32,828 bases of DNA, from contig JBGPMX010000003.1 in NCBI GenBank assembly GCA_041487215.1, forward strand, positions 1-32,828. Reading direction: 5' to 3'. The DNA comes from Planctomycetia bacterium (GTDB lineage: Bacteria; Planctomycetota; Planctomycetia; JALXBF01; JBGPMX01). Below are positions 1,178 through 21,789 of this stretch, one piece after another; the stretch's first letter is position 1, and every line of letters starts with the position of its first letter. A model generated the notes under the pieces. That model worked only from the letters and a program-made list of their open reading frames with translations, was not told the DNA's origin and did no database searches. The position numbers and the translations under genes were made by a program.

Positions 1178-4100
1178 TTACCGGGCATGCCAGGTTGCGA
1201 GTACGTCGTCCAGGACGCACGCCTCGATCAAATCGTGCGCGCAGCCGCGCTGCGCAGGAGTTTCCCCGAGACGTTCCGGCTCGATCGGCTCGAAGCCATC
1301 CTGGATCGGCGCGACGCCCCGGTCCACGCGGCTCGCCAGAACGGCGTCGACCGCCGGAGCCCGCTCGGGATCGGATTGCGGCGGGGTCGGCACGGAGAGG
1401 GGAACCACGTCGAGAGTCGCTGCCGGTCGCAGCGCCGCGGCTGCCGGGCGTTGGCTCGGAGTTACGGAGCCGCTTGCAGAGTCATCGTTGCCGAACCGCA
1501 CCCTGCCTCGCGCTCCGCTCAGCAACCGAACGGCGCGGCTCGCGGCGTCTGCCGGTGCGGTCTGGACCCAGCCTTGTTGGACCATCTGGGTGACGTGATA
1601 GAGACCGGGGGCCAGGTCTGGGAAGACGAACTTGCCCGTCCCGTTGCTGACCTTCGACGGTTCGTTTGGATCCTGCGACCCATCCCCATCGAGATCGAGA
1701 AAAACGGTCCAGCCGGGCAGGCGCGCCTCATCAGCGTCCTGGGCGCCGTTCCGGTTGTCGTCGTGGAAGATCTTGCCTCGGATGCGGCCCGGCTGGTAGG
1801 CGGCCACATCGATTTTACGGGCGACACCGCCGGGGGGAACGCTCGCATGCATCGGCACGGCGACGAATCCGCTCGCACTCACGAGCACGACGGCGTGATC
1901 GCCGGGGTCCAGGTTCTTGAACGAATACGTTCCGTTGGGCCGCGTGAGCTTCGACCGTTCGCCGGGGTCGGGTATCCCGTTGCCGTTCGAGTCGAGCAGC
2001 ACCACCCAGCCGGCGAGCAGAGGTTCGCCGGCGTCATAGCGCTGGTCGCCGTTCATGTCCTCGAAGGCGTGCCCCTTGATCTTCCCCGGGCGGGCCGGCG
2101 TGTCGCCGATGTCCGCGTTGGCAACGTCTCCGCCGCTCGACGCGAAAATTGTCTCGGGATTGCCCGTGGTGCGGAACCAGCCGGGTTCCACCACCTGGCG
2201 CACGCGGTAGGTACCGGGACCCAGGTCGAGGAACGCGTAGTTCCCCTGGGCGTCGGTCTGCGTGCTGGCTTCGCCGGCATCGAGCGTGCCGCTGTCATCG
2301 GCGTCGAGGAAGAGCGTCCAGCCCGCGAGTCCCTGGTCTTCCGTATCCTGGAGGCCGTTGCCGTTGTGGTCCTCGTAGATCGACCCACGGATCGTGATCT
2401 TCCGGAAGTTGCCGAAGTCGATGCCATCGAGCACGTCGCCGGCGGCGACCTGAACCGTGCGGCTCCCGGCGATGACCGGGGACCTGGCGGGCCGGTCATG
2501 AGGCGCTTCTCCGGTTGTCGCGTGGGAGCCGATCGTGGCCAGCGGCGCTCCACCGGCCAGCGCTAGAATCCCCTCGGCGAGTGCCAGCACATCCACGCGG
2601 GCGAAGCTGAGCCCGGTGTTCGTGACGTTATCACGCTCGTCGTCGCCGTCCTTGATGATGGTGGCCGTTGATACCAGCAAGGATCGGAATTCATCCAGGG
2701 TCAAGCGCCGCCCCAGCTTGTCGAGCGCCAGCTGCTGCGCGAGCGCGGCCACACCGGTCACATACGGGGCGGCCATGCTGGTGCCGGAGAAGGTGGCCAC
2801 CCCACCCCCCAGGCCGGCTCCGGCGATGAGCGCGCCCGGCGCGAACGCGTCGCTCAGGCCGTCGTCGCGCTGGGAGAAGCTGACGATGCGATCTGCTGCC
2901 GTGCTCAAATCCCTGGCGCCGTTCTTCCAGGTAAAAGGTCCGCCGGCATCCGCGCTCCAGACAGCGCCGATCGACAGCGAGTTCGGGTCCGCGGACGGAT
3001 AGGCAACTCCTTGCCTGCTGCCGTCGGCGTAGAAGTCATTGCCCGATGCGGACACCACGATCACGCCCAGCGCCGCCAGGGCGGCCAGGTCATTGCTGAT
3101 CCCCGCCCTGAGCTGGGGCGTGCTGTAATTGCCGCCATCGCCGAACGACATGTTCACGCCAGCGATGCGGTATTGCGCCGCATGCGCGATCACCCACTCG
3201 AGCGCCCGCTCGACCGAGGCGAAGCTTCCACTCCCCGTGCTGTCCAGCACCTTGAGCTCGATCAGGTTTACGCTCGGCGCCACACCGCGATGGACGAGGT
3301 CGCGCGACGCAACGATGCTCGAGACGTGCGAGCCGTGTCCGTGGTCGTCGCTCGCGTCGGCGTCGTCGTGAACGAAGTCCCACTGATACACCACGGAATC
3401 GGCGACGCCGTTGGAATCGCCGTCCGCCCCGAAGAACGGGTGGTCCGGGTCGATGCCGGTGTCGAGGATGACCACGGACAAACCGCTGCCGTCGATGCCG
3501 GCAAACCTGGGATCGGCACGGAAGGCGTCGAGAGCGATGAGACCGCCCGCCCGCTCGGCGCTCACAAGACTGCTCGGGGTGGTCTCGTCCGAGCTGCGTA
3601 CCCCCGCGATGGTCACCCGCACGTCACCGAGCGCGGTCCGAGAAACCGGCGCAGCCGAGGTCGATCCCCCTGGCCCGGGCGAGGTCTGCATCCAGCCCTG
3701 CTGCATGACCTCCGCCACGACGTAGGACCCCGGCGCCAGGGCGGTGAAGACATACGCGCCGTTGGCGTCGGTGACCGTGCTCGGCTCTTCGGTGTCGAGC
3801 AACCCGTCGTCATCCAGGTCCAGGAAGATGGTCCAGTCGGCGAGGCCCGGTTCGCCCGCGTCCTTTGTGCCGTCGCCGTCGAGGTCGTTGAACTCCTGGC
3901 CATGGATCTCCCCCGCCGGCAAGGCGCCCACGTGGGTCTGCGCATCCGGCGTGGCGGGTGGGGCCTCGATATTGCCCGCGTTGTCGCGAGCCACGCTATA
4001 GAACGCATAGGCGTGCCCCGGCTCGCCCGTGTACAGCGCCTCGGTAAGGCTAGTGCCGACGAGCCAGCGCACGAACGGGCCGCCGTTGTCCGATACGTAG

Positions 4101-7100
4101 ATGGCAAAATCGGCCAGGGCCGAACCGCCTTCGTCGTCTCGGCCCGACCAGGAAACGAGGAAGGTGCTTTCCGCCGTCGCGGCGCTCAGAAGATCAACCG
4201 CGCTGGTCGGCGGGGCGCTGTCCAGCGCGTTGGCGATCCCCGGCGTGTCGATCGGCTCGTTGGTGTCGAACACGACCCGCGCCCGCGCGTCGATGCGAGC
4301 GCCGGTGGTGACGTCGTGCTTGGGCCGGATCGTGTAGGTCACGAAGCCCTCTCCGATGCCGCTTGAATCGTTCGGGGGCAGGAAACCCAGGAGCGCGTCA
4401 GCCGGAGACTCGCCGGTCTGCGGATCGACCGTGCTGAGCACCCAGGTGGCCAGCCCGGTCTGGACATCGACCGAGGCGGTGATATCCACTGCGTAGCCCA
4501 ATGTGTCGAACAGGTCGATGCGGCCTTGATAGAAGCCTTGCTTCGCATCGAGCTCGATGTGCTGGTCGCCCCAGCCGAAGTCAGCGACTCGGAAGCTGCG
4601 CACGTCGAGGTCGTCATCGAGCGCTTGCGTGATAACCACTCGCTGCGCCGGCCCGCTGGCATCGGCCTTGTTCTCGAAGCGGATCATGTAGGGCAGCGTA
4701 TCGGAGCTGCTCACCCACGCCTCGCTGCCGAACCCGGTGGGCCCGATGATGTCGTTCGGGTCGAGCGAAACGGCCTGCCGCGGCTCGTAGGGTTGCGGAG
4801 GCTCGGGCGGCGTCGGCACCGGCGGGGGCGGCGGTACCGGAAGGGGCAAGGGCCGGGGATCGTTCGGTTTCGGCTGCGGCGGCTTCTTGGGCTTCTTGGA
4901 GCAGTCGCTCGGGACATCGCCCCAGTCGACCGAGTAGAGCCAGTCTGTCAGGTCCAAATCCGAAGCTCGGAACCGGGCCGTCGAACCTTCCGCTTGAGAG
5001 GAGGATGGCCCGAAATCCGCTCCGCTCGCTGTCGTCGCCGCGGCCACGGGATCAAACGCCGTCGGTTCGGACCAATGCCCGTTGAAAGTGCTCTGGAATA
5101 TGCTCGGGTCGTTGTTGTTCAGGTTCCCTGTAACGTCCTGGGTCCAGAACAGGACCGTGTTTCCGTGAAGCTGGGTGATGGCAGCCGGGCCGGTGATGGC
5201 GCCAACGTCGACGGCCTCGGGTGTCGTCCAGCCGTTGCCGTCCCAGAACGCGGCCATCAGCTGGGTGCCGCTGTCCGCCGCGTGCTTCCAGGTGGCGAGA
5301 AGGCGGCCATCCGCCGAGACACTCACCACCACTTCGCTTTCGCGTCCGTTCGCGGTCCAGATCGGCACGGGTGTCGACCACGCCCCATTGCGGTATGTCG
5401 AGAAGACGACGTCGTTGCGCGTGAGCGTCCCCAGGATCTGGTTGGTGTCTGACTGAGGCGTGAGAGCGCTGGTGTCGGCCATGGACCAGACGATGATCGG
5501 CTCGCCGCCGGGACCAAAACCGATCGCGGGCTTATCGCTGAAGCCTCGGCTTCCGGGCAGCTCGACCGGCTCGTTCCATCGGGTTCCGTCGAACCGGGAG
5601 ACCAGGACGCGATCGCCCAGCGGCCCGGGCGAGGCCGGATCGGCATCCTTGGCCCACGCCAGGTAGATATCACCATTTGGCGCCTTCGCGAGCGTTGCGG
5701 GACCGTCTTCCGAGAGATCGGACGCGACGTTGCTGAGGATGCTTCCACTGCCGTAGACAGTTCCCGTGCCCGCGTGAGGCCCGTAGTGCAGCGACAGGCT
5801 CTGCGTGGTCGGGCCCGGGCGTGGGGTCTCGAGTGCAAAGGGTTCTGAGGCTGCGGACAACTGGAGCGAGGAACCGGTCGGCCTGGATGGGTCTTCGATC
5901 CAGACCGCGGTCATGGCTCCGCCCCAGGGCCCTGCGGTTACGAGCACGTCCATGGTGACCGTCAGGCGCTTGAACGTCAGGAAGCGGGGATAGGCCTCCC
6001 ACCGGGCCGTTCCGAGCACCTTCGCCTGCACCCGGATTTTGTTCAGGAGCTTGGCTTTGCCGAAGGCGCCGACCGAAAGATCGGTGTACAGATTCGCTTG
6101 CGCCGGCTGGTCGACCGTCCACTTGTAGGAACCGCTAAGGCCGAACCCGAACGAGGCTCCGACGCTGAACTTGGCGAGCTCATCCCCGAGATCCACTAGC
6201 ACAATGCCGAGCGGGATGGGCGGCATCGGCACGGGGATCTTGACGAAGGGGATATCGACCGAACCGGAGATGGCGCCGCCCAGCTTGAACTCGTTCACCG
6301 AGTAGCCGCCCGGCTCGGCGGCGGCCGACAGAGACGCGTTCAACTCGCCGGCGAATTCGACGTCGTCCGCGACTTCCGCCTTGAGCTGCACGAAGCCGGA
6401 TATCTTCGCCACCTCGCAGTTCTTGCTGCGATTGAGAACCCCGAGGACGGCGATGTTCTTCTTGCCGCCGATGAGCGGGATCCACGACGGGAGCTGGTTC
6501 TGGTAACCAAACCCGACCGACACGATGTCGGGGGAGTCCACGGCGGCGCGAAAGCCCAGATCGTCGGTGCCCGCTAGCGCGGCCGTCGCGACGCCCGCCG
6601 GCCAGATGAGGCCGGCGGACCCGATCTCGACCAGCCGCGCATAAAGGTCCGCATCATCCTGAAGTGTGTCGTCGTACTTCTGTGACACCAGCAGCACCCG
6701 TCCGGAATTCGTCACCACGACGGTCGGTGAATCATCGTAGGCGCTGTCCAGGGTGAGGTTGATCGGCGCGGACCACTCATAGGCGCCGCCCGCGCGAGCC
6801 CGGCCAAGGCTGTAATAGATGTCCGAGTTGTTGCCCTGTCCCTGGCGCCAGGTGACAAGAATACCGGCGGCCTGTCCGTCGATCAGGTTGCCGGCGGCCT
6901 GGATCGCGTAACTGTCCGGGATGGCGCCGGGAATGGGACCAGCCCCCACCCACGCGCTGCCGTTGTAAGAGGCGTGCCACAGCTCCTGGTTGTGAGTCCA
7001 GATCATGTGCGGCACCCCAGAGGCGTCGATCGCCAGCGCGGGGTCCGCCTGGTCCAGGTGAGGCGGCTCCGCGGACGGCTGAGGATCGGGGTCGGGCAGC

Positions 7101-10100
7101 AACTTGGGCGACAGCATCAGGTCCGTCGCGGCTTCGCCCGGCCGTAAGGTGACGGTGGGGATCGTGTCGAAGTAGAAGCCGCGGATGAACACCTCCCACG
7201 TTCCGGCGTGCAGCTCCTCGATGCGAAATCGTCCCTCCGGGTCGGTGGTCCCGTGCGCGAGCCGTGCATTGTCGCCGCGGATGACCTGTCGGAGTGTCAC
7301 CTGCGCACCCGCGGCAGGCTGGTGCGTCGCGGCGTCCAGGACGTGCCCGCCGATCACGCCGGACGGCTCGAACAGCTCCTCGAAATAGATCGCGCGGAAC
7401 AGCTCGGCCACACCAACCACCCGTTGACCTCGGACGCTCAGAAACGTCGCCATGTCGGCGAGCGCCCGCACGTAATCGCCCCAGGTGTTCCCGAGCCGTG
7501 CCTGGATGTCGGGCCAGATCGCGTTCCATAGGTCATCGGGCAGATCCGGCGGGCGGATGGCGGCTTCGACCTGCTGGAAGTCAATCGGCCGATTGTCGTC
7601 GGCCGTAATCGTGTGCAGCAGGAACCGGCCGGTCCCGCCGTTCGTGTTGTAGAAGAATGGGATGCTGCCCAGCTCGCCCGCGCGGAGCACGCCGGCCGGC
7701 CCGTCGCCCGAGATGCCCAGCACCTGGAGCGTGCGGCCCGGTGCCAAATCGTCGCGTGACAGCCCGAACGGCACACCGTCGGGGCCTTGCACGATCAGTA
7801 GCGGCGCCACCGCGTCGGCGTCGCCGTTGTTGCCGTAGTTGGCGTAGAAGACATACTCGTGGTCGAGCCGCACAACAGCCGGGCCGTTCAGTGTGGCGCC
7901 GAGTCGCGGGCCGACGCCCGGCAGCACCACGAGGTCCAAGCCACTCGTCTCGCCGCTCGCGTTTGTTACGACGACGCGATAGCGATTCTGCGGCTCGCCG
8001 GAACCCCCTGACCCCGTCGGCGGCTGGCCGGTGAGGTCAAAGGTGACGAAGGCGGTCATCGGGTCCTGGATCTGGACTTGCGTGGGACTCAACACCCGGT
8101 CGCCATTGCGCGTGATCCGGAACGTCGTGCTCGCGTCCAACTGCGATCCCACCAGCCGCATCGTGACCGGGCCGGCGTTGCCGACCTGGGTGGGCGCCTC
8201 GAGCAGTGAGAACGGTAGCGTATGCACACTGACTCGGAACCTCTCGTGGCTGGAATCGTCGCTAGAGTTGTGGCTGGAGCCGGGGCTGAAGTCCGGGTGC
8301 GTGTCGCGCACATCGAGACGAACGAAGTAGGTGCCCGCCTGCGTGCGAGGGATGACCAGCGGCTTGGCGTCGCCCGAATGGAGGGAGCTCCGCAGCCATT
8401 CGTCCTCCCGAAGGTCGTGCGCAAACGGTGTAGGCACACGTCCGAACGCCACGTACGCCGCCGTTACGGTCTGCCGGGGCACCGTCTCGAAATGATCTCC
8501 CACGGGCGGGGCATCGTGCACGAACACGTCCGGGATATCGCTGAAAAGAGCCTCGATGGCGATGGTCTCGTCCTGCGGCGCGTCGAAGCGAAAATACAGG
8601 GCCTGTGTGTATTGATGGGGCACGAATGTGTCCACATCGGCCGAACCGGCCCCGTCGCTGAGCGCGATCTCCGGCACACTGACGGTGAAGCTATCGAGCG
8701 ACGCGCGTAAGTTGTTCGTCTCGTTGCTCTCCGGGATGACGTTGAATACGTCGCTGCGCACGATCAGGAAATAGTCGCCCGGTAAGACGGCCGGCAGCCC
8801 GGCGCCCGCGTGCACGGTCAGGCTTCCGCCCGGCTCGATCCGGCCCTGGGCTTCCTCGCGGTGCTGCAACAGGGAGAGCGGCACGTCGTCGGCGCTGTAG
8901 TGGTCGTCCGACGAAAGGTAGAGCCGGTCCCACCAGCTGCCCCGGGCGGCATTGGTGCCCAGGTTCTCGAGCGTGTACGAGAGCGATACGTTCGATCCGA
9001 CCGGCGCGTTTTGGGGAATCGTCACGCTGCCCACAAGCAGATCGGCGGGCGGCGCGAGCGACGCGACCAGCGCCGTAGGGTCGTATGCCGTGTTGTTCGC
9101 CTCGCCATCTGCCTCCAACACTTCGTCGCTCCGATCGGTTGCGACGAACACATAAAGCGGACCGGTGAGACCGGCCGGTACGCGGAAGGTCGCGCTGCGC
9201 GTGTAAACCTGGTAGGGATCGCCCGGGCCGGTCACGGGAACGAGATCTTCCATCCGGGCAGTCCGCTCGCCCAGAAAGTAATCGCTGCCCGCATCGAACA
9301 CCTGGTCGCGCGACAGGAACACCACGTCGCGCCAGTGGCCCGAGCGCAACTCGGGGCGTAACCGTTCGGGTGGAGTGCCGGGCGGGTCGATGAAGTCACC
9401 GACGTTGCGGACTTCCCAGGCGACGTCGAATTCCTGAGCGCTCAGCGCCTCGGCCGGCGCCGTGATGCTCGACACGATAAGGTCTGGCTTGAACCGCAAC
9501 GTCGCGACGTCGAGTTGACCGGCGAGCTGAGTGTTGTTCGAGTCGCTCTCCTCGAGGACCTGGTTGTCGGCATCGGCGCGGATGAAGAAATAGAGCAGGC
9601 CGCTCAGGCTCCGCGGCAGCTCCACCCAATCTGCACCCGCGTACTGGCCGCCGTGAGCAAGCGCCCCCGAGTGATACACGCTGTCGAGCAGCAGGTCATT
9701 GCCGTTGCCGAAAACGTCATCAGGGGATGCGTAGATCCCGTCGTGCCAGTACTCCGAGCTCGTGCGATTGGCGCCGCTGTTCGTCACGGTCCACTCCAGG
9801 CGGAGCCGCCCGTTCTCCGCGGCCAGTCTGGTCGGCAGCAGTTCCAGGTCCGCCGTCTCACGCGTGACCTGGATTGGCACCGCGCTCGATGCGTTGTTGC
9901 TCTCGTTGTCGGCCTCGAAAACCGCGTTGCCGGCGTCGCTGACGACAAAGAGGCTGTACGAGCCGGCGAACTCAAACGGCAAGCCGACGGTGGCCGCGTT
10001 CCCGTAGGACTGTCTGGGATCCAGCGCGCCGGTGTGGGAGACAAGGGCAAGCACCGTGTCGTCGCCGTCCCCCAGCGCGTCGTTGCGCGAGGCGATGATC

Positions 10101-13100: not shown

Positions 13101-15550
13101 GCCTGCTCGGAGCCGTCGTTCAGCACGGTGTAGGTGCCTTCGACGTACTGCCCGGGGCTCACCTCCGCCGGCACAATCGCCGAAATGACCAGATCGACGT
13201 CGGGCGGCGTTAACAAGATCGGCTGCGCGTACACGTTGTTGGTTTCGTCCGTTTCCCCTTGGTCCTCAAAGCCGTCCGCCACAACCAGCAGGTAGCGGTT
13301 TCCCGCCGCCGTGTTGGGGATTCTCACGGTCAGCGTGGTCGTGTAGCTGGCGCCGGCAGCCAGGGGGATGTGATCGCGTGGGTATGCCTCGTCCACGGTC
13401 GTATCGCTGTCGTCGAACACCATGTCGTCGGAGATGGCAATGACGTCGTCCCAGCCCGCCGCCGCGCTGCCGGGCCCGTGGTTGATGACCGTCCACGAGA
13501 CGTCGATCGTCTGGAAGATGACAGCCGAGTCCGGCGCCGAGGCGGCGGTGACCTCGAGGTCCGGCGCCTTGATCTCGATCGGCAGCGCGCGGACGTTGTT
13601 CGTTTCGTCGGTTTCGGACCTCTGGCCGAATGCGTCGGCGACGATCAGCAGGTACTTGCTTCCCGGTGTGGCTTCATCCAGGTTGACGGTTTGCGTGACC
13701 TGGTAGCTGCCACCGTTTGCATCCAGCGGCGGTGCGTTGTGCCGGTACTGGTCCAGCTGCGTGTCGCTGTCCACGTCGAATGCCACGTCATCGGACAGGA
13801 AGACCGCGTCGTACCAGCTGCCCGGGGCGAACACGCTCCCCTGGTTCGTGACGGTCCAGGAAACGGAGATCCGTTCCCCCACCGAGGCTGACGGGGGCGC
13901 CGACGCGGTCGGGGCGGGTACGATCAGGTCCGGCTTCTCCACGTCGATTGCCACCGCGACCACGTTATTCGTCTCGTCCGTCTCGTACTGGGCGTTATTC
14001 TTGTCCGTGACGAACAGCAGGTAGCTGGTTCCGGTGCCTGCGTCCGCAGGGATGGAGACGGTCAGAGGACCGCCGTAACTGAGACCACCCGCCAGCGGTG
14101 TCTCAGCACTCACGAACCGCAAGCCGATGGACTTGTCCCTGCTGGTGTCGAGCACCACATCATCGGAGATGTAAACATAGTCGTACCAGTCCTTGACCGC
14201 GGGCTCTGTTCCCTCGTTGCGCACGCTGAAAGGAACATCCAGCGCCTGACCCGCCACAACCACCGGCGGAACGGTTGGTGGAACGACCGTGAGGTCCACG
14301 TCCGGCCCGGTGATCTCGATCGGCACCGACACGACGTTGTTGGTCTCGTCGGTCTCGCCCTGGAAGTTCGAGTTGGAATACCGGTCGGTCGTAAAGAGCA
14401 GGTAGTGGCTGCCGGCCGTTGTATTCGGAATCGTGGCACTCTTGGTTACGTTGTAGCTTGTGCCTCCGGCCAGCGGTATCTGCGGCGCGATGGCAAAGCT
14501 GAAGACTATGGCCAGGTCGGTGTTGTCGAGAGTGTTGTCCGTGGAAAGGTAGACCACGTCGTACCAAAAGGGAGCGACTGTGCTCTCCGACCGTGCATTG
14601 CTTACTGTCCAGGAGACGTCGAAGGTCTGATAAACCGCCGCGGTGGCCGGGTGGGACGTGGGGGTGATCTGGAGATCAACGTCCGGGGCGGCGAGCGCGA
14701 TGGGCAGGACCTGGATGTTGTTGGTCTCGTCCGTCTCTCCCTGCGATCCGGAGACATCGGCCACGAAGAGCAGGTAGCGACTGCCCGCGTTGAACGCCGG
14801 GATGGTGACGTCCTGGCTGATCGTGTAGCTGTCCCCACCGGCCAGCGGGGTTCTATCCGCCGCGGAAAAGGTCTGCACGTTTTTGTCGATCGCGAAGCCA
14901 TCGAAGGTTGGGTCATTGGAAAGGACCAGCGCGTCGGTGTAGTCGGTCAGTGCCGACACGGAGCTGCTCTGGTTGTGCACGATAAATGAGACCGGGATCG
15001 TCTGGTGCATGGCGGCCGACGCAGGAGCCATCGCGTCCGACACCGCCAGATCCGGCGCCTGGATCTCGATGGCGCGCGCAAGGACGTTGTTGGTTTTGTC
15101 CGTCTCCGGCTGGTACCGGTCGTGGTCTGTCACGATCAGGAGATAGCGGGTGCCGGGCGTCGCGTTGTAGAGCGTCACGGAGTCGCTCAGGGTGTAGCTG
15201 GCCCCCGCGCCGAGCCGGTCGCTGCTGGGAGGATAGAACGCCCCGAGCACGGTGTCCCCGTCGTCCAGGATCGTGTCGCTCGAGAGGTAGGCGAAGTCTC
15301 TCCAGAGGGCGGGGCGGCTCGCGGTGGTGCCCTGGTTCTGGACCGTCCAGCGGATCGCGATCGTGTCGCCGCTGACCGCCGCCGCGGGGGCGGAAAGGTC
15401 TGTGATGACCAGGTCCACGTCGCTGGCGAGCAGCAGCCGCTCTTCCAAGTTTTCCAGCAATAACTCGCGCCGTTTGTTGCACTTGTGGCTGCGAGCTTGC
15501 CGGGGATTGCCCGGCCATGCGGCACGTTGGCAACGGGCAGATCGCATCAT
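1178..15550 (-). CDS. Giant exported multidomain protein (~4790 aa): LExRxLL signal, 18 CARDB-type repeats, Ig/IPT domains, carboxypeptidase-regulatory-like domain, propeller-like repeats, SxDPND domain, FN3-like domain, 4 SdrD-B-like domains, S8 subtilase
   Basis: Open frame. True start is likely ATGATG at 15550 with GGGAG RBS, followed by a basic leader and RRELLLENLEERLLLA. S8 motifs: VVILDTGID, HGHGSHV, SASGND, FSGTSMAAP. SdrD-B motifs of the type GxxFxDxDGDGxxDxGEPGLxxWTIFLDxDxDG. The ORF-track start at 15886 lies inside a MITE. Confidence 0.92.
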   Translation of the reverse strand: MMRSARCQRAAWPGNPRQARSHKCNKRRELLLENLEERLLLASDVDLVITDLSAPAAAVSGDTIAIRWTVQNQGTTASRPALWRDFAYLSSDTILDDGDTVLGAFYPPSSDRLGAGASYTLSDSVTLYNATPGTRYLLIVTDHDRYQPETDKTNNVLARAIEIQAPDLAVSDAMAPASAAMHQTIPVSFIVHNQSSSVSALTDYTDALVLSNDPTFDGFAIDKNVQTFSAADRTPLAGGDSYTISQDVTIPAFNAGSRYLLFVADVSGSQGETDETNNIQVLPIALAAPDVDLQITPTSHPATAAVYQTFDVSWTVSNARSESTVAPFWYDVVYLSTDNTLDNTDLAIVFSFAIAPQIPLAGGTSYNVTKSATIPNTTAGSHYLLFTTDRYSNSNFQGETDETNNVVSVPIEITGPDVDLTVVPPTVPPVVVAGQALDVPFSVRNEGTEPAVKDWYDYVYISDDVVLDTSRDKSIGLRFVSAETPLAGGLSYGGPLTVSIPADAGTGTSYLLFVTDKNNAQYETDETNNVVAVAIDVEKPDLIVPAPTASAPPSASVGERISVSWTVTNQGSVFAPGSWYDAVFLSDDVAFDVDSDTQLDQYRHNAPPLDANGGSYQVTQTVNLDEATPGSKYLLIVADAFGQRSETDETNNVRALPIEIKAPDLEVTAASAPDSAVIFQTIDVSWTVINHGPGSAAAGWDDVIAISDDMVFDDSDTTVDEAYPRDHIPLAAGASYTTTLTVRIPNTAAGNRYLLVVADGFEDQGETDETNNVYAQPILLTPPDVDLVISAIVPAEVSPGQYVEGTYTVLNDGSEQADTHASPVWRDKIYLSDDATPGPEDTVLFNEPWYTPLDAQASYTVPYGISIPNTAVTGKYLLFVTDAENRQAETNKTNNIVAAPTSAQVPDLVVSDASSPASAALGETIPVSWLVTNLGPGAALADWQDAIYLSDDATLDGSDIALDSESITAQTPLGKDSGYTIPKNITIPDTATGSRYLLFVVNAGQAQGETDYVNNVLARPIELKAADLKPTDLGSPVSAALGETITVSWTVLNRGPGDAVADWSDAFFVSDDTTLDPSDLFVRSFPVGDQTPLLNQLSYSLNRDLTIPDTAIGNRYLLVVTDHGGDQFESDNGNNVLARPIEITGADLLVPPGVNAPASAVLGNSVAVSWSVANQGNGPASAGWFDSIFISDDTALDGSDLFLASFSAADETPLAAGSSYDRTRDVLIPNTAAGNRYLLIVADQGNGYVPNGQGQYQPESDETNNTRAVPIQLRAADLIVSDVSAPLEVFSGQRIDITWRITNRGDAPATGAWKDRVYLSDDGTVGNDLMLGEFDFAGSIDPDRSILRTQTVTVPIDLSGPRYVVIETDAGDSAVAEGAAESNNNTVDDRQIDVRSSPFPNLQVSGVTAGVSSVTLGDAFQVSWTVNNAGTGPTDAPQWSDYAYFSVDQILDSTDVYIGGAVNPSYLSAGQGYPGSAVATARGVGPGDYYVLVMADARGQVFEYLDEADNVGVGPRVHVDRPPPPDLVVTQVHAPDQAFSGQAITLAYTVGNTGAALIAPQGWFDDVYMSADDVLNPAEDRRLTGVPNSTSTFRGTNEYTSRPVVTLPAGVSGTFYFFVAADATNQLDEFAFETNNSGYDPVPTTINLTPPPDLEASGVGVADTALAGHSMTVSYHVTNFGSTATPNDSWSDAFYLSEDSQFDPTVDLLLGQRTHLGALAVDGSYDATASLTLPNGLSGPRYVFVAVDADNGVFELNDGNNVAPDAAPVLINSLPADLVVASAAVSGTPAAGGSITITWTVRNRGDGDTIVGTWADQIIASRNDALGDGDDTVLALVSHTGALDPRQSYGNAATVGLPFEFAGSYSLFVVSDAGNAVFEADNESNNASSAVPIQVTRETADLELLPTRLAAENGRLRLEWTVTNSGANRTSSEYWHDGIYASPDDVFGNGNDLLLDSVYHSGALAHGGQYAGADWVELPRSLSGLLYFFIRADADNQVLEESDSNNTQLAGQLDVATLRFKPDLIVSSITAPAEALSAQEFDVAWEVRNVGDFIDPPGTPPERLRPELRSGHWRDVVFLSRDQVFDAGSDYFLGERTARMEDLVPVTGPGDPYQVYTRSATFRVPAGLTGPLYVFVATDRSDEVLEADGEANNTAYDPTALVASLAPPADLLVGSVTIPQNAPVGSNVSLSYTLENLGTNAARGSWWDRLYLSSDDHYSADDVPLSLLQHREEAQGRIEPGGSLTVHAGAGLPAVLPGDYFLIVRSDVFNVIPESNETNNLRASLDSFTVSVPEIALSDGAGSADVDTFVPHQYTQALYFRFDAPQDETIAIEALFSDIPDVFVHDAPPVGDHFETVPRQTVTAAYVAFGRVPTPFAHDLREDEWLRSSLHSGDAKPLVIPRTQAGTYFVRLDVRDTHPDFSPGSSHNSSDDSSHERFRVSVHTLPFSLLEAPTQVGNAGPVTMRLVGSQLDASTTFRITRNGDRVLSPTQVQIQDPMTAFVTFDLTGQPPTGSGGSGEPQNRYRVVVTNASGETSGLDLVVLPGVGPRLGATLNGPAVVRLDHEYVFYANYGNNGDADAVAPLLIVQGPDGVPFGLSRDDLAPGRTLQVLGISGDGPAGVLRAGELGSIPFFYNTNGGTGRFLLHTITADDNRPIDFQQVEAAIRPPDLPDDLWNAIWPDIQARLGNTWGDYVRALADMATFLSVRGQRVVGVAELFRAIYFEELFEPSGVIGGHVLDAATHQPAAGAQVTLRQVIRGDNARLAHGTTDPEGRFRIEELHAGTWEVFIRGFYFDTIPTVTLRPGEAATDLMLSPKLLPDPDPQPSAEPPHLDQADPALAIDASGVPHMIWTHNQELWHASYNGSAWVGAGPIPGAIPDSYAIQAAGNLIDGQAAGILVTWRQGQGNNSDIYYSLGRARAGGAYEWSAPINLTLDSAYDDSPTVVVTNSGRVLLVSQKYDDTLQDDADLYARLVEIGSAGLIWPAGVATAALAGTDDLGFRAAVDSPDIVSVGFGYQNQLPSWIPLIGGKKNIAVLGVLNRSKNCEVAKISGFVQLKAEVADDVEFAGELNASLSAAAEPGGYSVNEFKLGGAISGSVDIPFVKIPVPMPPIPLGIVLVDLGDELAKFSVGASFGFGLSGSYKWTVDQPAQANLYTDLSVGAFGKAKLLNKIRVQAKVLGTARWEAYPRFLTFKRLTVTMDVLVTAGPWGGAMTAVWIEDPSRPTGSSLQLSAASEPFALETPRPGPTTQSLSLHYGPHAGTGTVYGSGSILSNVASDLSEDGPATLAKAPNGDIYLAWAKDADPASPGPLGDRVLVSRFDGTRWNEPVELPGSRGFSDKPAIGFGPGGEPIIVWSMADTSALTPQSDTNQILGTLTRNDVVFSTYRNGAWSTPVPIWTANGRESEVVVSVSADGRLLATWKHAADSGTQLMAAFWDGNGWTTPEAVDVGAITGPAAITQLHGNTVLFWTQDVTGNLNNNDPSIFQSTFNGHWSEPTAFDPVAAATTASGADFGPSSSQAEGSTARFRASDLDLTDWLYSVDWGDVPSDCSKKPKKPPQPKPNDPRPLPLPVPPPPPVPTPPEPPQPYEPRQAVSLDPNDIIGPTGFGSEAWVSSSDTLPYMIRFENKADASGPAQRVVITQALDDDLDVRSFRVADFGWGDQHIELDAKQGFYQGRIDLFDTLGYAVDITASVDVQTGLATWVLSTVDPQTGESPADALLGFLPPNDSSGIGEGFVTYTIRPKHDVTTGARIDARARVVFDTNEPIDTPGIANALDSAPPTSAVDLLSAATAESTFLVSWSGRDDEGGSALADFAIYVSDNGGPFVRWLVGTSLTEALYTGEPGHAYAFYSVARDNAGNIEAPPATPDAQTHVGALPAGEIHGQEFNDLDGDGTKDAGEPGLADWTIFLDLDDDGLLDTEEPSTVTDANGAYVFTALAPGSYVVAEVMQQGWMQTSPGPGGSTSAAPVSRTALGDVRVTIAGVRSSDETTPSSLVSAERAGGLIALDAFRADPRFAGIDGSGLSVVILDTGIDPDHPFFGADGDSNGVADSVVYQWDFVHDDADASDDHGHGSHVSSIVASRDLVHRGVAPSVNLIELKVLDSTGSGSFASVERALEWVIAHAAQYRIAGVNMSFGDGGNYSTPQLRAGISNDLAALAALGVIVVSASGNDFYADGSRQGVAYPSADPNSLSIGAVWSADAGGPFTWKNGARDLSTAADRIVSFSQRDDGLSDAFAPGALIAGAGLGGGVATFSGTSMAAPYVTGVAALAQQLALDKLGRRLTLDEFRSLLVSTATIIKDGDDERDNVTNTGLSFARVDVLALAEGILALAGGAPLATIGSHATTGEAPHDRPARSPVIAGSRTVQVAAGDVLDGIDFGNFRKITIRGSIYEDHNGNGLQDTEDQGLAGWTLFLDADDSGTLDAGEASTQTDAQGNYAFLDLGPGTYRVRQVVEPGWFRTTGNPETIFASSGGDVANADIGDTPARPGKIKGHAFEDMNGDQRYDAGEPLLAGWVVLLDSNGNGIPDPGERSKLTRPNGTYSFKNLDPGDHAVVLVSASGFVAVPMHASVPPGGVARKIDVAAYQPGRIRGKIFHDDNRNGAQDADEARLPGWTVFLDLDGDGSQDPNEPSKVSNGTGKFVFPDLAPGLYHVTQMVQQGWVQTAPADAASRAVRLLSGARGRVRFGNDDSASGSVTPSQRPAAAALRPAATLDVVPLSVPTPPQSDPERAPAVDAVLASRVDRGVAPIQDGFEPIEPERLGETPAQRGCAHDLIEACVLDDVLATWHAR
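8690..15421 (-). repeat. Tandem array of 18 CARDB-type Ig-like repeats (~120 aa each) within the giant protein
   Basis: Recurring unit xDLxV...P...G..I.V.WTV.N.G...W.D..YLS.D...D..D...G.YLL.V.D...E.DETNN, counted 18 times in the translation. Confidence 0.88.
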
Positions 15551-15605
15551 GACAAGTCTCCCGAACGAACAACCAAGAACCGGAGCCTGAGCCCCTGAAT
15601 GCGTA

Positions 15606-15631
15606 TATGCGCCGGGTTCGGGAAACCTGTC
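15606..15631 (-). promoter_or_regulatory. Putative ECF-sigma promoter of the giant protein gene (GACAGGT-N12-GCGCATA)
   Basis: Minus strand GACAGGT ttcccgaacccg GCGCATA, ending about 55 nt before the ATG. Same boxes and spacing as 20783-20808. Confidence 0.7.
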
Positions 15632-15732: not shown

Positions 15733-15801
15733 TCAACCCTCGACTGATGTGCTCTGCGCGGCTGGCAGATCGCCAGGAGGCATCGGCTCGGCCACTACAT
15801 C
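15733..15801 (-). pseudogene. Orphaned ancestral 3' end of the kinase gene (DVVAEPMPPGDLPAAQSTSVEG-stop)
   Basis: Removing the MITE and one TSD copy rejoins ...EAEALL in frame to 22 further codons and a TGA at 15733-15735. Confidence 0.75.
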
Positions 15802-15809
15802 GAGCAGCG

Positions 15810-15900
15810 GGTACTGGGTCAGTTTGGCTGATACCCCCCCTTGTCCCCCCCTTGCTAAGGGGGGGACAGGGGGGGTCGCATTTCAAACTGACCCAGTACC
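15810..15900. mobile_element. 91-bp MITE with 17-bp perfect TIRs and 8-bp target-site duplication (possibly IS1595-family)
   Basis: GGTACTGGGTCAGTTTG (15810-15826) and CAAACTGACCCAGTACC (15884-15900) are exact reverse complements. GAGCAGCG flanks both ends (15802-15809, 15901-15908). The interior is a poly-C/poly-G hairpin. The family guess rests only on TSD length and TIR appearance. Confidence 0.9.
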
Positions 15901-18900
15901 GAGCAGCGCCTCGGCTTCCGCACGGAACCCGAGCAACTCGACATCATCAGGCTTGTTGGTGTTCATCCACTCGACCGCCTGGTCGTACCATCGCCGTGCG
16001 GCGTCTCGGTCCCCGAGGCGCCAGTGCGCCATGGCCAGGAAGAAGAAGTCGAAGCTGTGTCCGCCCTGAAGTTCGACGGACCTCTCCAGTGCGGCGACGG
16101 CGGATTCCCAGTCGATCGCCCGATAGTAGGCGATCCCGAGCGTGTTCCACGAGTACCCGTCGTGCGGGCTGAGCTCGACAGCGCGTCGGGCCAACCGGAC
16201 TGCCAAGACAGGGTCGTGACTCTGGTGGTCCTGGCCGGTGACGAGGTGCCAGGCCGAGCTGTTGCAGGCCTCGGCGCTGTTCGGTTCTGGACCCAGAGGC
16301 TCGAGCAGCTGGGCAGCGATGCGCTCGCGCACCGAGCGTAGCAGCTCATCCGCGCTGTCGCGTGTCCGTGCCGCCTCCTCGGGCCGGCCGGTTGTTTCGA
16401 GGCAGCTGCCGAGCCGATCGAGACTGACGATCAGCTCGTCCGCGTAGCCGATCGTGTCTGGGAAGTCGGCCGCTAGTCTCTCGAACACCGTAACCGCTCT
16501 GCCGTACGCGTCGCGCGCCGGCGCATCCTCACCCCGCCGCAGGTAGATATCTCCCGCGCGCCGGAATGCGCTGCCGGCCTGTTGCCGCACCGCGGGTTCG
16601 TCTGCTCCTCGATCCAGCGCCGCCGCGTATGCGGCGGCAGCCTGTTGCCAATCGCCGCCGGCGGCGTACACGCGAGCGCGGTCTGCGTAGTGTTGCCACT
16701 GCGATGGCGCCGCGGCGATCAGGCGGTCCAGGTGGAACGCCGCAGCGGACCATTGCCCGCCGCGCAGGCAATCGTCGGCTTCGTAGCGATGCCAGGCAGT
16801 CACGGCGTCTGGCGACGCGATCACATCGGCCGGGTATTGCGTACGCAACGTTTGCCATGCCTCACGCGTCGTGGCGGAGTCGATCGGAACCAGGCCGCCG
16901 GTATGGTCAATCTGGTGCGCGGCGACGAGCGGTGCCAGACGCTGCAAGTCTGCGACGGAATGCGCGTCGCAAGGCAGCTGCCACACCTGTGCGGTCCCGT
17001 CCCAGCTGGCGGTGACGATGCGGCGGCCGTCCGGGCTGAACTCCGCGTAGCCCACGCGGCTCTTGTGCTTCAAGATTGGTGTGACCGGTTCGCCCGTGCT
17101 CGCGTCCCACACCCGCGCCGTGCCGTTGTGGCAAGCCGTGACCAGGCGGCGCCCGTCACGGCTGAACAACACGTGGATCACGTGACTTCCGTGCATTAAC
17201 GGGGGCGTGGTGGCACGCCCGGTCTCGGCGTCCCAGACGCGGGCCGTGCTATCCTCGCTGGCGGTGACGATGCGATCGCCCTGGGGGCTGAACGAAGCAG
17301 CTAGCACACCGTCGCGGTGCCTGAGGGGGCTGCCTACGCGATCGCCCGTCTCTACGTCCCACACCTGGGCCTCGCGCTCCTCGAGCGAGCCGTCCCAGCA
17401 GGCGGTGACAACACGGTGTCCGTCGGGACTGAAGCTGGCGTGTTCGACCCAGTTGTCGTTGGGAAAGCTCTTGAGCTCCGCGCCGGTCGCGACGTCCCAG
17501 AGGCGCGCCGTATGGTCGTAGCTGGCCGTGACGACGAGCCGGCCGTCCGGGCTGAACGACGCGTCCCGCACGCGATCTTGGTGTTTTAGCGGCCCACTGG
17601 TTGGTTGCGCCGTTACCGCATCCCACACCCGCGCCGTGCCGTCGTCGCTGGCGGTGACGATGAGCCGGCCGTCGGGGCTGAACGAGGCGTGTTGCACCGC
17701 CGCGCCGTGCAGCGTAAAGAAGCTGAGCGGCTGGCCGGTCAGCGTATCCCACACCCGCGCGGTCCTGTCTGCGCTGGCGGTCACGACGCGGCTACCGTCC
17801 GGGCTGAACGATGCGTGCGTTACCGCTCCGCGGTGCCGCAACGGCGGCCCGGCTGGCTGGCTGGTCGCCGCGTCCCACAGCTGCGCCGTGCCGTCTTCGC
17901 TGGCCGTAAGCACCAGGTGCCCGTTCGGGCTGAACGCGGCGTGGGACACCGCGCCGCGGTGCCGCAGCGGCGGCAGCAATCGGTCGCTCGTGGCCAGATC
18001 CCACAACCGGGTCGTCCGGTCCCACGAGCTCGTCAGCACGCGGCGTCCGTCGGGCGCGAACGCTGCGCACAGCACAAAACTGCCGTGCCGGAGCGACGGA
18101 CTGACCGGCTCACCCGTCGCCGCATCCCATACGCGTGCCGTGCCGTCGTAGCTGGCTGTCACGACCCGCCGGCCGTCAGGACTGAACGACGCCTTCAGAA
18201 CCGCCGCGCTGTGCCTGAGCGGCGACAGGGTCACGAGGGTACCGCTCTCGGTGTTCCACACCGCGGCAGTCCAGTCCCAGCTGGCGGTAACCACGCGGCG
18301 GCCGTCTGGACTGAACGAGGCGGTGATCACGCCCTCCAGGTGTTTGAGGGGCGGCGCGCACGGTTCGCCGGTCTGCGCGTCCCAGAGGCGTGCTTCACCG
18401 GGACCGCCGAATCCGCCGGCAGCGGTCACGACCCGGCGGCCGTCCGGGCTGAATGAGGCCTGATTGACAAACGTGGAGTGCGCAAGCGGCGGCGTGATCG
18501 GTTCGCCCGTGTCGCTGCTCCACACGCGCGCCGTGAAATCGCCGCTGGCCGTAACCACGCGGTCCCCGTTCGGGCTGAACGATACGTAGGCGACCGCCGC
18601 GCGGTGCCGCAGCGGCGGACCGACCGGGGCGCTCGTCGCCACGTCCCATACCTGAGCGGTCCCGTCGCGGCTCGCCGTGGCCACACGCCGCCCGTCGGGG
18701 CTGAAGCACGCGTGCCGGATGGCGTCTCCTTGCTTGAGCGGCGCGCTGCGCGGCTCGCCGGTCGCTGCGTCCCAGACCCGCGTCGTCGAGTCTGCGGCGG
18801 CGGTGACCACCAGGCTGCCATCGGGGCTGAATGCCGCGTGAGCCAGTCGGGCGGCATGACGCAGCGGCGGCGTGACGGGTTCGCCCGTCTCTGTGTCCCA

Positions 18901-20721
18901 CACCCGTGCGATCCCGTCCTCGCTCGCGGTCACCACCCGTCGCCCGTCGGGGCTGAATGCCGCGTGCCAGGCGGCACGATCGTGGAACCAGATCTCGACC
19001 AGCTTGGGGCTCCGCATCCAGACAGCGGCCAGGCGCATGCGGTGCATCTCTTGCCGCGCCGGGTCTTGCTTATCGAGCCCCATGGCGCGGACGAACCAGG
19101 GGATCGCGGCGAAGAAGTCCCCCTCGTTCGTGAACCGCACCCCATTGGCGATGCTCAGCCGCACCAATTGTTCGGTGGCCTCGTCGCGCTGCCGCACGGC
19201 CTCGACCCGCGCGCGCGCGATCAGCACCGTGCTGGCCGCGAGACCAAGAACCGCCGCGACCAGCAGCCCGGCTGCGAGCAGCACCGCCGTCTTGTGCCGC
19301 CGCGACCACTTGGCGAGCCGCTGCGCCACCGTGGGACGTCCGGCCCGAACCGGCTTGTCCTCGATGAAGCGTCTCAGGTCATCTGCCAGCTCCGCCGCCG
19401 CGGCGTAGCGCTCCGAGGGCACCTTGGCCATCGCCTTCAACACGATAGTCTCGAGATCGCGTGGGATGCGCCGGTCAAGCCGGCGCGGCGGTAGTGCTTC
19501 GGCCTCGGCCACCTGCTTGATGAGACGTGCACGGTCCGGCTCGTCGAACGCCGGGCGCGCGGTCAAGAGCTCGTAGAGCGTCAGCCCCAGGCCGTAGATG
19601 TCGCTGCGTGGGTCCGACCATCCCTGGAACCGCTCGGGCGCCATATATCGCAGGGTCCCAAGCAGGTCGCCGGTGTGCGTGAGCTCATCGGCTCCCTCCG
19701 CCTTGGCGAGGCCGAAGTCGGTCACCCAGACGGTGCCGTGCCTGTCGAGCAGCAGGTTCGAAGGCTTGATGTCGCGGTGCAGCACGCCGTTTTGGTGCGC
19801 ATAGGCAAGGGCCTCGGCGGCCTGGATGCCGATGCGTGCGACGCTGTAGAAATACTGCCGGCGCGAACCTGCCGCGCTGGGGATGTCCGACGAGCCGGGC
19901 AGCGCCGGCGCCGTTCCACGCCTGGGTCGACCGACCCCTGTACCGGGCTCGGACCCGTCCGAAGACGCTTGCGTGGTGCCCGGGTCAGGCTCGCGCGCCG
20001 TATCGGGCGCCGAGCCATCCGCCGGCGTGAATTTTCCGGTGAGCAATCGCCGCGCAAGGCCGGCGCTATCGGCGTCCCATGCCCGCGAGGTCGCAGTGCC
20101 GCCGGGCCCCGCGGTTGCACCCATCCGGGCCATCTCGCCCAGCAGCTGATCGAGGCCCCAGCCGTCGATGAACTGCATGGCGTAAAAATGCGCCGCCCCC
20201 TGCTCGCCGACGCCGAACACCGGCACGATGTTGCCGTGGTGCAAGCGGGCGGCGGCGCGCGCCTCGCGATGGAACCGGCGCACGTGGTCCCGGTCCATCA
20301 GTAGTTGCGCCGGCAGTACTTTGAGCGCCACGTGTCGGCCGAGCGATTGCTGCTCGGCCTCGTAAACGACGCCCATGCCGCCCCGGCCGATCTCGCGGAT
20401 GATCCGGTAATCGCCCAGCATGCTGCCGGCCGGCTGCGCGGGCCCCGGGCGGCGGGAACCGGATCCGCTGGCGGGCCGCAACTCGCAAAGTCGCTCGATC
20501 AAGCCCTCGACCGCCTCGCTATCCGGGCCCGCGCCGAGCGGCGCCTGCGCCCGGAGCGGCCCCAGCAGCTTGTCGGTGTCCGTGAGTGCGTCCACCGCCT
20601 TGGCGCAGCGATCGCACTCGAGCAGATGCCGCGCCATCGGTTCCGCCTCGACATCCGAGCTCTCGCCGAACGTGAACCGGCGGAGGGCTTCGGCGTCAGG
20701 GCAACCGGACGGTAGCTGCAC
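15883..20721 (-). CDS. Membrane-anchored Hanks-type Ser/Thr kinase with N-terminal zinc anti-sigma (HxxxCxxC) motif, 16 WD40 repeats and C-terminal TPRs (~1612 aa)
   Basis: GTG at 20721 with GGAG RBS. CPD...RHLLECDRC. Kinase motifs [32 protein letters not shown]. One TM segment ([24 protein letters not shown]). 16 FSPDGxxVVTASxDxTARVWD units. TPR-like [11 protein letters not shown]. Confidence 0.95.
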
Positions 20722-20782
20722 GGTATCACTCCGGGGACCGCGCGCGGGCCGGCCGCCCAGGCAGAACGATCCAGCAAGAAAG

Positions 20783-20808
20783 TATGCGCGATCGCGGGCG
20801 GACCTGTC
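20783..20808 (-). promoter_or_regulatory. Putative ECF-sigma promoter of the kinase gene (GACAGGT-N12-GCGCATA)
   Basis: Minus strand GACAGGT ccgcccgcgatc GCGCATA, ending about 61 nt before the GTG. Identical boxes to 15606-15631. Confidence 0.7.
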
Positions 20809-20880
20809 CCGGCTTCCGGAAGAAAACGGGCGGCTCTGCGGTTGCCGGGCCCCACGCACCGAAAGGCGGCCGAGCGCCCA

Positions 20881-21444
20881 TCATTCCAGCAAACCTTTGA
20901 GCTCCTGGTGCAACCGCCGTAGTACACGCGACTTCGCGAGATAGACGGCGTTCACGCTCATGCCCAGTTCGGCCGCGACTGCGGCGGCCGGCCGGCTCCC
21001 CACCACGCACTCCCAGCACGCCTTCCAGGTGGTCGGTTCGAATTCCTGCTGCATGAGCTTCAGTGCGCGGCCGACGAGGTAGCGGCGGTACTCGAACTCG
21101 TCGAAGTCGTCGGTCTCCGGCGCACGCAGATCGGCAATGGGCGGGTCGGTCGGCCCGGCCGTCGGCAGGGCGCGGCGACGCCGCTGCTCGCGCCACTTGT
21201 TCCGCGTCACGGTGCGCAGCCAGCCTCGGAAACTCTTCTCCGGGTCGTACGCGAAGCCAGGCAGCTTTTGCACGAGCACGAGCAGCACTTCCTCGACAAG
21301 ATCGGCGGCGTCCTCCGGTCCCAAGCCCACACGACGCGACCAGGAATAGAGCAGCGGTGTATAGAGCTTGACGAAGCGCGACCATGCCTCCTGTTCGGAA
21401 GGCTGCCGCAGGCGTTCGAGCAGGCTTACCGAGGTGGTGTACAT
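20881..21444 (-). CDS. ECF-family RNA polymerase sigma factor, planctomycete kinase-associated type
   Basis: 187 aa with sigma2 (AWSRFVKLYTPLL...EDAADLVEEV...SFRGWLRTVTRN) and sigma4 HTH (AAVAAELGMSVNAVYLAKSRVLRRL). N-terminal TSVSLLERLR. Directly upstream of a Ser/Thr kinase. Confidence 0.95.
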   Translation of the reverse strand: MYTTSVSLLERLRQPSEQEAWSRFVKLYTPLLYSWSRRVGLGPEDAADLVEEVLLVLVQKLPGFAYDPEKSFRGWLRTVTRNKWREQRRRRALPTAGPTDPPIADLRAPETDDFDEFEYRRYLVGRALKLMQQEFEPTTWKACWECVVGSRPAAAVAAELGMSVNAVYLAKSRVLRRLHQELKGLLE

Positions 21445-21515
21445 GGGGCAGGCGACGGCCCGATCCTGTGCGCAGACGGCGAGAGCCGCGGCTGACGGGC
21501 GGGGCGACGCCCGCC

Positions 21516-21544
21516 AGTATAGACCGGCGCGCGAGCAGAGTCAT
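21516..21544 (-). promoter_or_regulatory. sigma70-like promoter of the ECF gene (ATGACT-N17-TATACT)
   Basis: Minus strand ATGACT ctgctcgcgcgccggtc TATACT. The spacer is 17 nt, and the -10 ends about 71 nt before the ATG. Confidence 0.6.
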
Positions 21545-21777: not shown

Positions 21778-21789
21778 AGTTGTGGCGCC

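Follow-up and report, generated by a model that had tools for sequence, protein, structure and literature searches.

The stretch of DNA analysed here, referred to as the window, spans positions 1 to 32,828 (32,828 nucleotides [nt]) of contig JBGPMX010000003.1 in the Planctomycetia bacterium assembly GCA_041487215.1. It carries three co-oriented genes, all on the minus strand, which encode an extracytoplasmic function (ECF) sigma factor, a Ser/Thr kinase with a putative anti-sigma domain at its N terminus, and a giant protein that is probably exported (Table 1). A preliminary description of the window had named this trio, and gene positions and domain matches bear out both its composition and its orientation. 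In planctomycetes, ECF sigma factors that are paired with Ser/Thr kinases number in the dozens, and the present locus, together with its orthologues, offers a defined promoter, a residue-to-base specificity rule, and a candidate built-in anti-sigma domain for one such module. The source genome is a 5.27-Mb draft in 816 contigs, 80% complete, that originates from sediment metagenomes. All of the evidence for the module is computational, drawn from sequences and from predictions made on them.

Table 1. Features of the sigma-kinase-giant locus, with positions in the window
Feature	Position	Strand	Details
Candidate sigma70-like promoter of the sigma gene	21516..21544	minus	ATGACT-17-TATACT; sole consensus match in 15300-21900
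ECF sigma gene	20881..21444	minus	187 aa plus stop; region 2.2 DAADLVEE, region 4.2 SVNAVYLAKS
Shared element GACAGGT-N12-GCGCATA, copy 1	20783..20808	minus	62 nt ahead of kinase GTG; position conserved in orthologous loci
Kinase gene	15883-20721	minus	GTG start at 20721 behind GGAG; 1612 aa
ZAS class I anti-sigma-like zinc-type domain (putative), kinase residues 1-85	20467..20721	minus	C7, H32, C36, C39
Hanks-type Ser/Thr kinase domain, about aa 104-445, with low-complexity insert	19387..20412	minus	Pkinase 2.9e-37
Single transmembrane segment, about aa 478-500	19222..19290	minus	Only stretch with KD19 >= 1.6; RRHK precedes
Predicted periplasmic sensor: ~14 WD40 blades (aa ~585-1250), TPR-like repeats (aa ~1290-1600)	15922..18969	minus	Pfam/NCBIfam matches
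GC-rich hairpin, 81 nt, over the kinase stop codon	15815..15895	minus	-65.3 kcal/mol, z -9.6
Shared element GACAGGT-N12-GCGCATA, copy 2	15606..15631	minus	56 nt ahead of giant ATG
Giant exoprotein gene (export predicted)	1178..15550	minus	ATG at 15550; exactly 4790 aa

The product of the first gene is an ECF (group 4) sigma-70 factor. It scores 54.2 bits against TIGR02937 over residues 19-182 (cut-off, 42.9) and matches Pfam Sigma70_r2 at 1.5e-12; its scores against TIGR02984 and TIGR02989 fall far under the cut-offs of those families. The acidic motif of region 2.2 occupies residues 45-52 and is conserved, with D48, L49, and V50 invariant in an alignment of 15 rows. The linker contains Thr residues (PTAGPTD). 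The kinase gene starts 160 nt past the sigma stop codon, and its product has the intact catalytic motifs of a Hanks-type enzyme (GRGGMGVV112, VALK131, HRDIKPSN315, DFG335, and APE361). Given the lone transmembrane segment, the WD40/TPR part of the kinase would be periplasmic, a topology shared with the planctomycete kinases treated in the part of PMC11032199 consulted. With a Hanks kinase directly downstream and no separate anti-sigma gene, the sigma factor resembles the kinase-linked planctomycete ECFs (ECF59-62 and ECF217) in its gene arrangement.

The giant protein is built of repeats and a protease. Its N-terminal ~2250 aa are filled by CARDB repeats (16 stretches), and residues ~2250-3590 (window 4750-8900), some 1300 aa, match no Pfam family. 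The C-terminal part comprises DUF7619, SdrD_B, an S8 protease, and more SdrD_B, with a further match to CarboxypepD_reg. The Peptidase_S8 match (residues 4021-4303, 3e-38) retains the subtilase triad D4030/H4072/S4256, in the contexts DTGI4030, HGSHV4072, and GTSMA4256. Near its N terminus the protein has basic residues and, after them, the sequence LENLEERLLLA. Against the NCBIfam model LEPR-XLL (NF012209), residues 30-44 reach 7.9 bits, below the cut-off of 17 (E = 2.6). An Arg/Lys-rich stretch plus LExRxLL(S/A) also opens at least 18 other large open reading frames (ORFs) of the same genome, compared to 0 in a reversed-sequence null; examples are C92:344, C103:2151, C113:15, and C172:5128. 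Throughout this genome the combination seems to mark the N termini of large exoproteins, and perhaps it serves as their export signal. The export of the giant that had been assumed earlier is thus suggested by its domain types and by this N-terminal pattern; a classical hydrophobic signal segment was not found in a hydropathy scan of the N terminus (maximum KD19 1.3). When residues 2900-3500 were compared with 40 relatives, there were zero matches at E <= 1e-8, which leaves no comparative promoter footprint to be drawn for the giant gene. Terminator-like matches in its leader (3, with 2.5 expected) were disregarded.

The two downstream genes are preceded by identical copies of a bipartite sequence, GACAGGT-N12-GCGCATA, of which the 5.27-Mb draft genome has no further exact copy. 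None of 100 dinucleotide shuffles of the window gave the motif at up to 1 mismatch. A lone 1-mismatch copy elsewhere in the genome (C159) lies inside an opposite-strand ORF and was taken as chance. We compared sigma homologues of 45-71% identity from metagenome and genome contigs; at E <= 1e-55, 65 of the 401 genomes searched in the class had a sigma orthologue. Between the end of the sigma gene and the start of the kinase gene, many of the orthologous loci carry two boxes at a constant distance from each other, and 13 of these foreign sites aligned gap-free. The bases between the two boxes are not conserved across the loci; GGTTT after the -35 half and GCG ahead of the -10 half are conserved among the foreign sites, and neither is sigma70-like. 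A weight matrix made from 7 foreign sites only ranked the giant-gene copy best of both strands of the genome, at 20.9 bits. With 12 foreign sites it came second genome-wide, at 21.9 bits against a reversed-genome maximum of 17.7, and the top match was an AT-rich tandem repeat. By these comparisons, the shared bipartite element is real, as is the earlier claim that the kinase and giant genes share a non-sigma70 motif, given the exact copies and the conserved position in orthologous loci.

The -35 box of the element varies among loci, and it varies together with the sigma factor encoded beside it. In sites that had been selected with a matrix lacking the two tested -35 columns, bases 2-3 of the box tracked the residue (Z) that follows Y in the sigma-4.2 sequence AVY-Z-A(K/R). 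Where Z is L the box reads GACAG (15 loci, window included), where it is A or T the box reads GTCAG (6/6 loci), and the remaining classes are M with GTGAG (2/2), V with GTAAG (2/2), and H with GGCAG (1/1 locus). A second relation concerns the preceding position: replacement of Y by H pairs with a box that ends in AATC, both with Z = A (GTCAATC at loci L041 and L005) and with Z = L (GACAATC at L133). There were zero exceptions to these residue-base rules among loci with a clear site. Locus L088 belongs to the same genome as L054, and L058 was excluded for its frameshifted sigma gene. Shared descent alone hardly accounts for two residue-base relations that assort separately from each other. Because the element keeps its position, because matrices built on foreign sites rank the giant-gene copy so highly, and because the -35 box covaries with sigma-4.2, the linked ECF sigma factor is most likely the reader of the element. 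That the linked sigma acts on both the kinase and the giant gene, as first proposed for the window, is consistent with these comparative data.

Two of the loci compared show peculiarities of their own. L054 (= G043:C14; positions 6442-6567 and 7399-7436) has three copies of the motif, one before the sigma gene, one divergent, and one before the kinase gene. The strict pattern has only two matches in the 6.8-Mb genome G043, namely the divergent and pre-kinase copies, which flank the sigma gene; the ORF behind the divergent, third copy was not convincing, and we did not retain it as a promoter. In L058 (G042:C1, 10001-11000), which comes from a long-read metagenome-assembled genome, the sigma frame shifts and there is an in-frame stop in the kinase N terminus; both probably reflect assembly errors and not decay of the genes.

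Alternatively, the linked sigma factor may not read the element at all. The sequence could be a promoter of the housekeeping type (cTGACA-N18-CATAnn), it could serve a different ECF paralogue or a regulator, or the match could be due to chance. Its -35 half does resemble TTGACA, ECF paralogues are numerous in the genome (28 candidates at first look), and in 42 of 5000 shuffles the two upstream regions shared some 7+7 bipartite match of equal spacing. Taken by itself, the match between the two regions is thus suggestive, and the weight of the argument lies with the comparative evidence. That evidence speaks against another reader: the element is tied to the own locus of the linked sigma family across genera, its conserved GGTTT and GCG are foreign to sigma70 promoters, its -35 bases change together with sigma-4.2 residues, and it has just two exact copies in the genome, in a window in which an Rfam search found no family. 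We consider a different reader, or chance, very improbable.

If the linked sigma factor is the reader, how it is held in check becomes important, and the N terminus of the kinase provides a candidate. Four residues of this head, C7, H32, C36, and C39, form a C..HxxxCxxC set, that is, HxxxCxxC plus an upstream ligand, and are invariant in 10/10 kinase homologues. Such a set is typical of zinc-associated anti-sigma (ZAS) domains, and in a profile search against the PDB the head matched the class I anti-sigma factors DdvA (8rlz_A, 5.6e-6), RslA (3hug_B, 6.3e-3), and RsiW (5wuq_C, 0.019). Among the 29 best sigma loci of relatives, a kinase lies downstream in 19, and C..HxxxCxxC occurs there in 15. 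In a predicted complex of the sigma factor with kinase residues 1-85, the interface score ipSAE had a median of 0.62, compared to 0.01 for the best of 3 controls, and so passes a mark that 58 of 80 solved complexes attained, as did 2 of 110 mismatched pairs. Contacts agreed between runs to at least 83%, and the pLDDT of the partner was at least 70. The head is predicted to touch sigma-2 at residues 18-55, acidic motif included, and sigma-4 at residues 147-187. This predicted contact pattern is the class I anti-sigma binding mode, and we accordingly regard the head as a predicted zinc-type anti-sigma domain that would clamp sigma-2 and sigma-4.

A ZAS-like head need not answer to the kinase. 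It might instead be a thiol/redox or zinc sensor of the RsrA/RshA kind, so that oxidative or electrophile stress would free the sigma factor and the kinase would serve other substrates. The invariant ligand set would suit such a sensor, and the head profile does show a likeness to RsrA, albeit a weak one (E = 1.0) and less good than those to RslA and RsiW. Many ZAS domains, including RsiW and DdvA, are not known to be redox switches, which counts against this idea. In addition, the fusion of the head to a kinase, a transmembrane helix, and a very large periplasmic sensor is conserved in this class and would be hard to explain if those parts were idle, and the outputs of the module are exoproteins rather than thiol-repair genes. 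We therefore think it unlikely that redox or zinc sensing is the main function of the head.

The preliminary description had favored another mode of control, in which an intrinsically inactive sigma factor is switched on through direct phosphorylation by the kinase, as in the EcfP/PknT pair. On this model, the Cys/His motif of the kinase would have no anti-sigma role. Some observations speak for it. The sigma gene adjoins an intact Hanks kinase without a separate anti-sigma gene, and ECF59-62 and ECF217 are assigned to "phosphorylation" in the portion of PMC7826278 that covers them and in the table in PMC8999054. EcfK is phosphorylated at linker sites, according to the part of PMC13147305 consulted, and the linker Thr residues of the present sigma factor could be viewed in that light. 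The defining feature of ECF43, however, is not seen here. In the ECF43 sigma factors treated in the same part of PMC13147305 and in section 3.4 of PMC8999054, uncharged residues with a conserved Thr take the place of the acidic DxxD in region 2.2, and the missing charge comes from phosphorylation of a Thr, whereas DAADLVEE is present and conserved in our sigma family. For the kinase-linked groups other than ECF43, the reviews, as far as section 3.4 of PMC8999054 goes, give no mechanism; they keep the acidic motif (DAED) and, by the same account, may work differently. The conserved ZAS-like kinase N terminus, predicted to lie over sigma-2.2 and sigma-4, also argues against direct activation. 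By its sequence the sigma factor is not an ECF43 member, though the module may be partly ECF43-like in its working. Since the sigma factor keeps its acidic motif and the kinase has a conserved ZAS head that is predicted to sit on sigma-2 and sigma-4, sequestration and release seem more likely than EcfP-like activation. The chance that direct phosphorylation alone explains the module appears small to us, and the earlier proposal is to this extent set aside.

To see what the module adjoins in other genera, we fetched up to 20 kb around each of 20 orthologous loci. The genes after the kinase vary, and the giant as a gene is not conserved. The arrangement of the module with a LExRxLL-type large protein is conserved in part. 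In G199 (L127), the kinase stop is followed by a second copy of the element that agrees at all 16 core positions, and beyond this copy comes the gene of a 3309-aa dockerin/RHS protein with a basic N terminus followed by LDPRIVLAS. In G405 (L126), the gene of a 1195-aa reprolysin-type protease with MEPRVLLS has a second copy ahead of it, which differs by 1 mismatch and by the loss of one base from the spacer. In G350 (L133), a 3347-aa giant with LEDRTLPS and with PD40, SdrD_B, RHS, DUF7619, and RTX domains starts 42 nt past the kinase stop, and its gene is probably cotranscribed with that of the kinase. By a fixed regular expression, LExR frames of at least 800 aa followed on the same strand in 4/20 foreign loci. 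The share of such frames among those of at least 800 aa in the window's own genome is 13/395, which extrapolates to roughly 0.3 per 20 loci, a rough background density that comes from one draft genome. A survey of LExRxLL proteins after ECF-kinase pairs, as suggested at the outset, hence gives some enrichment, with second element copies in two genera. The giant gene itself is best seen as a lineage-specific recruit, with the same module driving other LExRxLL-type large proteins in other genera; this view is a part of the whole explanation set out below and probably stands with it.

Other genes behind the kinase fall outside this pattern. The post-kinase gene of L125, L128, and L129 encodes a protein of ~1000-1100 aa with a signal peptide, WD40 repeats, and a C-terminal caspase (Peptidase_C14)/CHAT domain, and the first post-kinase gene of L123 and L126 is also of the WD40-caspase/CHAT kind. 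In L117 and L118, WD40 and CsgG-like proteins of ~1500 aa follow the kinase. LExR-type proteins are found downstream in L122 and L136 as well, where a second site was not convincing. Two 2-mismatch matches in G042 (L067 and L070) were dropped for ambiguous ORF context. In G044, three identical 27-nt matches that begin with TGACAGGTT lie ~100 nt from contig ends (C66, C338, and C371; L064, L068, and L071) and are probably a repeated mobile element rather than promoters.

Taken together, we favor a private surface-sensing circuit, to which we assign a probability of about 60%, in which a sigma factor sequestered by the kinase head drives the kinase gene and the giant gene through the shared element. 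The sigma gene would be transcribed from a housekeeping-type promoter, and the sigma factor, competent for RNA polymerase, would be sequestered at the membrane by kinase residues ~1-85, as the in silico complex predicts. The WD40/TPR ectodomain would then sense a periplasmic signal and activate the kinase domain, which would free the sigma factor, most plausibly by phosphorylating its own head or linker or else the sigma linker. Once free, the sigma factor could read TGACAGGTT-N11-GCGCATA, the step with comparative sequence support, upstream of two transcription units. One is the kinase/anti-sigma gene, whose expression would both reset and amplify the sensor, and the other is the gene of the 4790-aa CARDB/S8 protease-adhesin, the output. 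Positive feedback on the kinase had been proposed before; because the kinase carries a putative anti-sigma head, its sigma-dependent expression would be at least partly negative feedback and not simply positive. The protease of the giant had also been suggested to release the inducing peptide itself, which is conceivable.

As for the first of these steps, a sigma70-like promoter of the sigma gene had also been proposed, and the candidate is the only consensus match in the 6.6 kb from 15300 to 21900, where 0.4 would be expected, so that the promoter can be considered weakly supported. TAnnnT-type hexamers were seen, by eye, at similar positions upstream of several sigma homologues.

Several observations, besides the shuffle count given above, weigh against the favored circuit. 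Seven loci of the Y/L class are without a clear site; a contig end truncates one of these, and in another, L092, the full matrix does pick out a GACAGG site. Since related loci do not count as independent, the covariation counts overstate the number of events. With the 7-site foreign matrix, the kinase-side copy of the window reaches only 14.1 bits, and with the 12-site matrix it is under the 11-bit listing threshold. A second site is also far from universal: local searches in 17 further loci did not find one, and pattern searches of G041, G042, G044, G045, and G033 gave no excess over a reversed control (in G041-G045 the pattern was TGACAGGTT-N11-GCGCATA with up to 2 mismatches). Own-variant patterns in G033 and G041 returned the kinase-side site only. 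With respect to the head, Pfam has no family at E <= 0.01 for the N-terminal 100 aa of the kinase, and the complex was predicted from shallow, self-made alignments, and its pass may reflect a likeness to solved ECF/anti-sigma complexes.

A broader reading goes beyond this locus. It is conceivable that the ECF groups of Planctomycetia regarded as kinase-regulated and "anti-sigma-less" are in general under the control of a zinc anti-sigma domain that forms part of the receptor kinase, that the -35 specificity depends on two positions of sigma-4.2 (Y or H, followed by L, A/T, V, M, or H), and that each such module privately drives its own sensor gene and a neighboring giant exoprotein of the LExRxLL type. 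We offer this as a tentative generalization, and one that we would sooner expect to fail than to hold. If true, it would describe a dedicated contact- or prey-sensing circuit through which costly surface weapons (protease, RHS toxin, adhesin) are deployed on demand. For the present locus, the circuit favored above already links an ECF-kinase module to the giant exoproteins of planctomycetes, which are poorly understood.

The remaining features of the window are of less consequence for the module. The hairpin at the kinase stop codon is a perfect one and a dispersed repeat: the same genome gives 273 BLAST high-scoring segment pairs, of which many span the full length at 91-95% identity, and a second copy lies in the window at about 26359-26413. 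The final codons of the kinase gene come from this hairpin, and metagenome contigs cover it to a very high depth. It resembles a repetitive extragenic palindromic (REP) or miniature inverted-repeat transposable element (MITE)-like sequence, and it is possible that it acts as a terminator or insulator that separates the kinase and giant transcription units. Neighboring genes outside the trio encode HD and ACT domains and appear unrelated to it. Four DNA sequencing runs that were mapped to the window come from the same strain at low depth and show zero variants in both motif copies; a C>G change at 15592 was seen in a single run. There was thus nothing to learn about selection on the motif from these runs, and we dropped them as a gauge. 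No RNA sequencing run was listed as covering 15300-21700.

How does the module compare with systems already known? The kinase-linked planctomycete ECF groups are reportedly due to Jogler (2012) and Casas-Pastor (2021). They are known from genome surveys, as set out in the part of PMC7826278 that deals with them, and in ECF59-ECF62 and ECF217 of that account, as here, the gene directly after that of the ECF sigma factor encodes a membrane Hanks kinase that bears WD40/TPR repeats, and a separate anti-sigma gene is missing. The relevant parts of PMC7826278 and section 3.4 of PMC8999054 describe these groups as without an anti-sigma factor and do not give target genes. Unlike those descriptions, ours proposes a ZAS-type head, a promoter, and a regulon. 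In the main texts of the literature searched, a description of a ZAS-kinase fusion was not found. The ECF43 pairs EcfP/PknT of Vibrio parahaemolyticus and EcfK/PknS of Xanthomonas citri resemble the module in joining a sigma factor to a transmembrane Hanks kinase with an envelope or surface output, and differ from it in that our sigma factor keeps DAADLVEE and our kinase carries the putative anti-sigma head.

With the class I ZAS factors of solved structure (DdvA/DdvS, 8rlz and 8rot; RslA/SigL, 3hug; RsiW/SigW, 5wuq; RsrA/SigR, 5frf), the kinase head shares the C/H..HxxxCxxC set, matching sequence profiles, and a predicted seat between sigma-2 and sigma-4. Unlike in those factors, the putative zinc domain is here fused to a Ser/Thr kinase, a transmembrane helix, and ~1100 periplasmic residues. 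The idea that phosphorylation may release a sigma factor from a ZAS partner has a precedent in Mycobacterium tuberculosis, where, according to section 2.1 of PMC8999054, PknB phosphorylates the ZAS anti-sigma factors RshA and RseA and thereby frees SigH and SigE. In that case kinase and anti-sigma factor are separate proteins, whereas here they would be one polypeptide, and a comparable release step can be suggested by analogy. Finally, the logic proposed for the locus recalls FecIRA, in which an outside signal, a single-pass membrane regulator, a dedicated ECF sigma factor, and a neighboring envelope gene also come together. No FecR, STN, or TonB-receptor family is among the Pfam/NCBIfam matches listed for the three proteins, which for the kinase are the best 25 families; unlike in FecIRA, the sensor of this module would be a kinase and its output an exoprotein.

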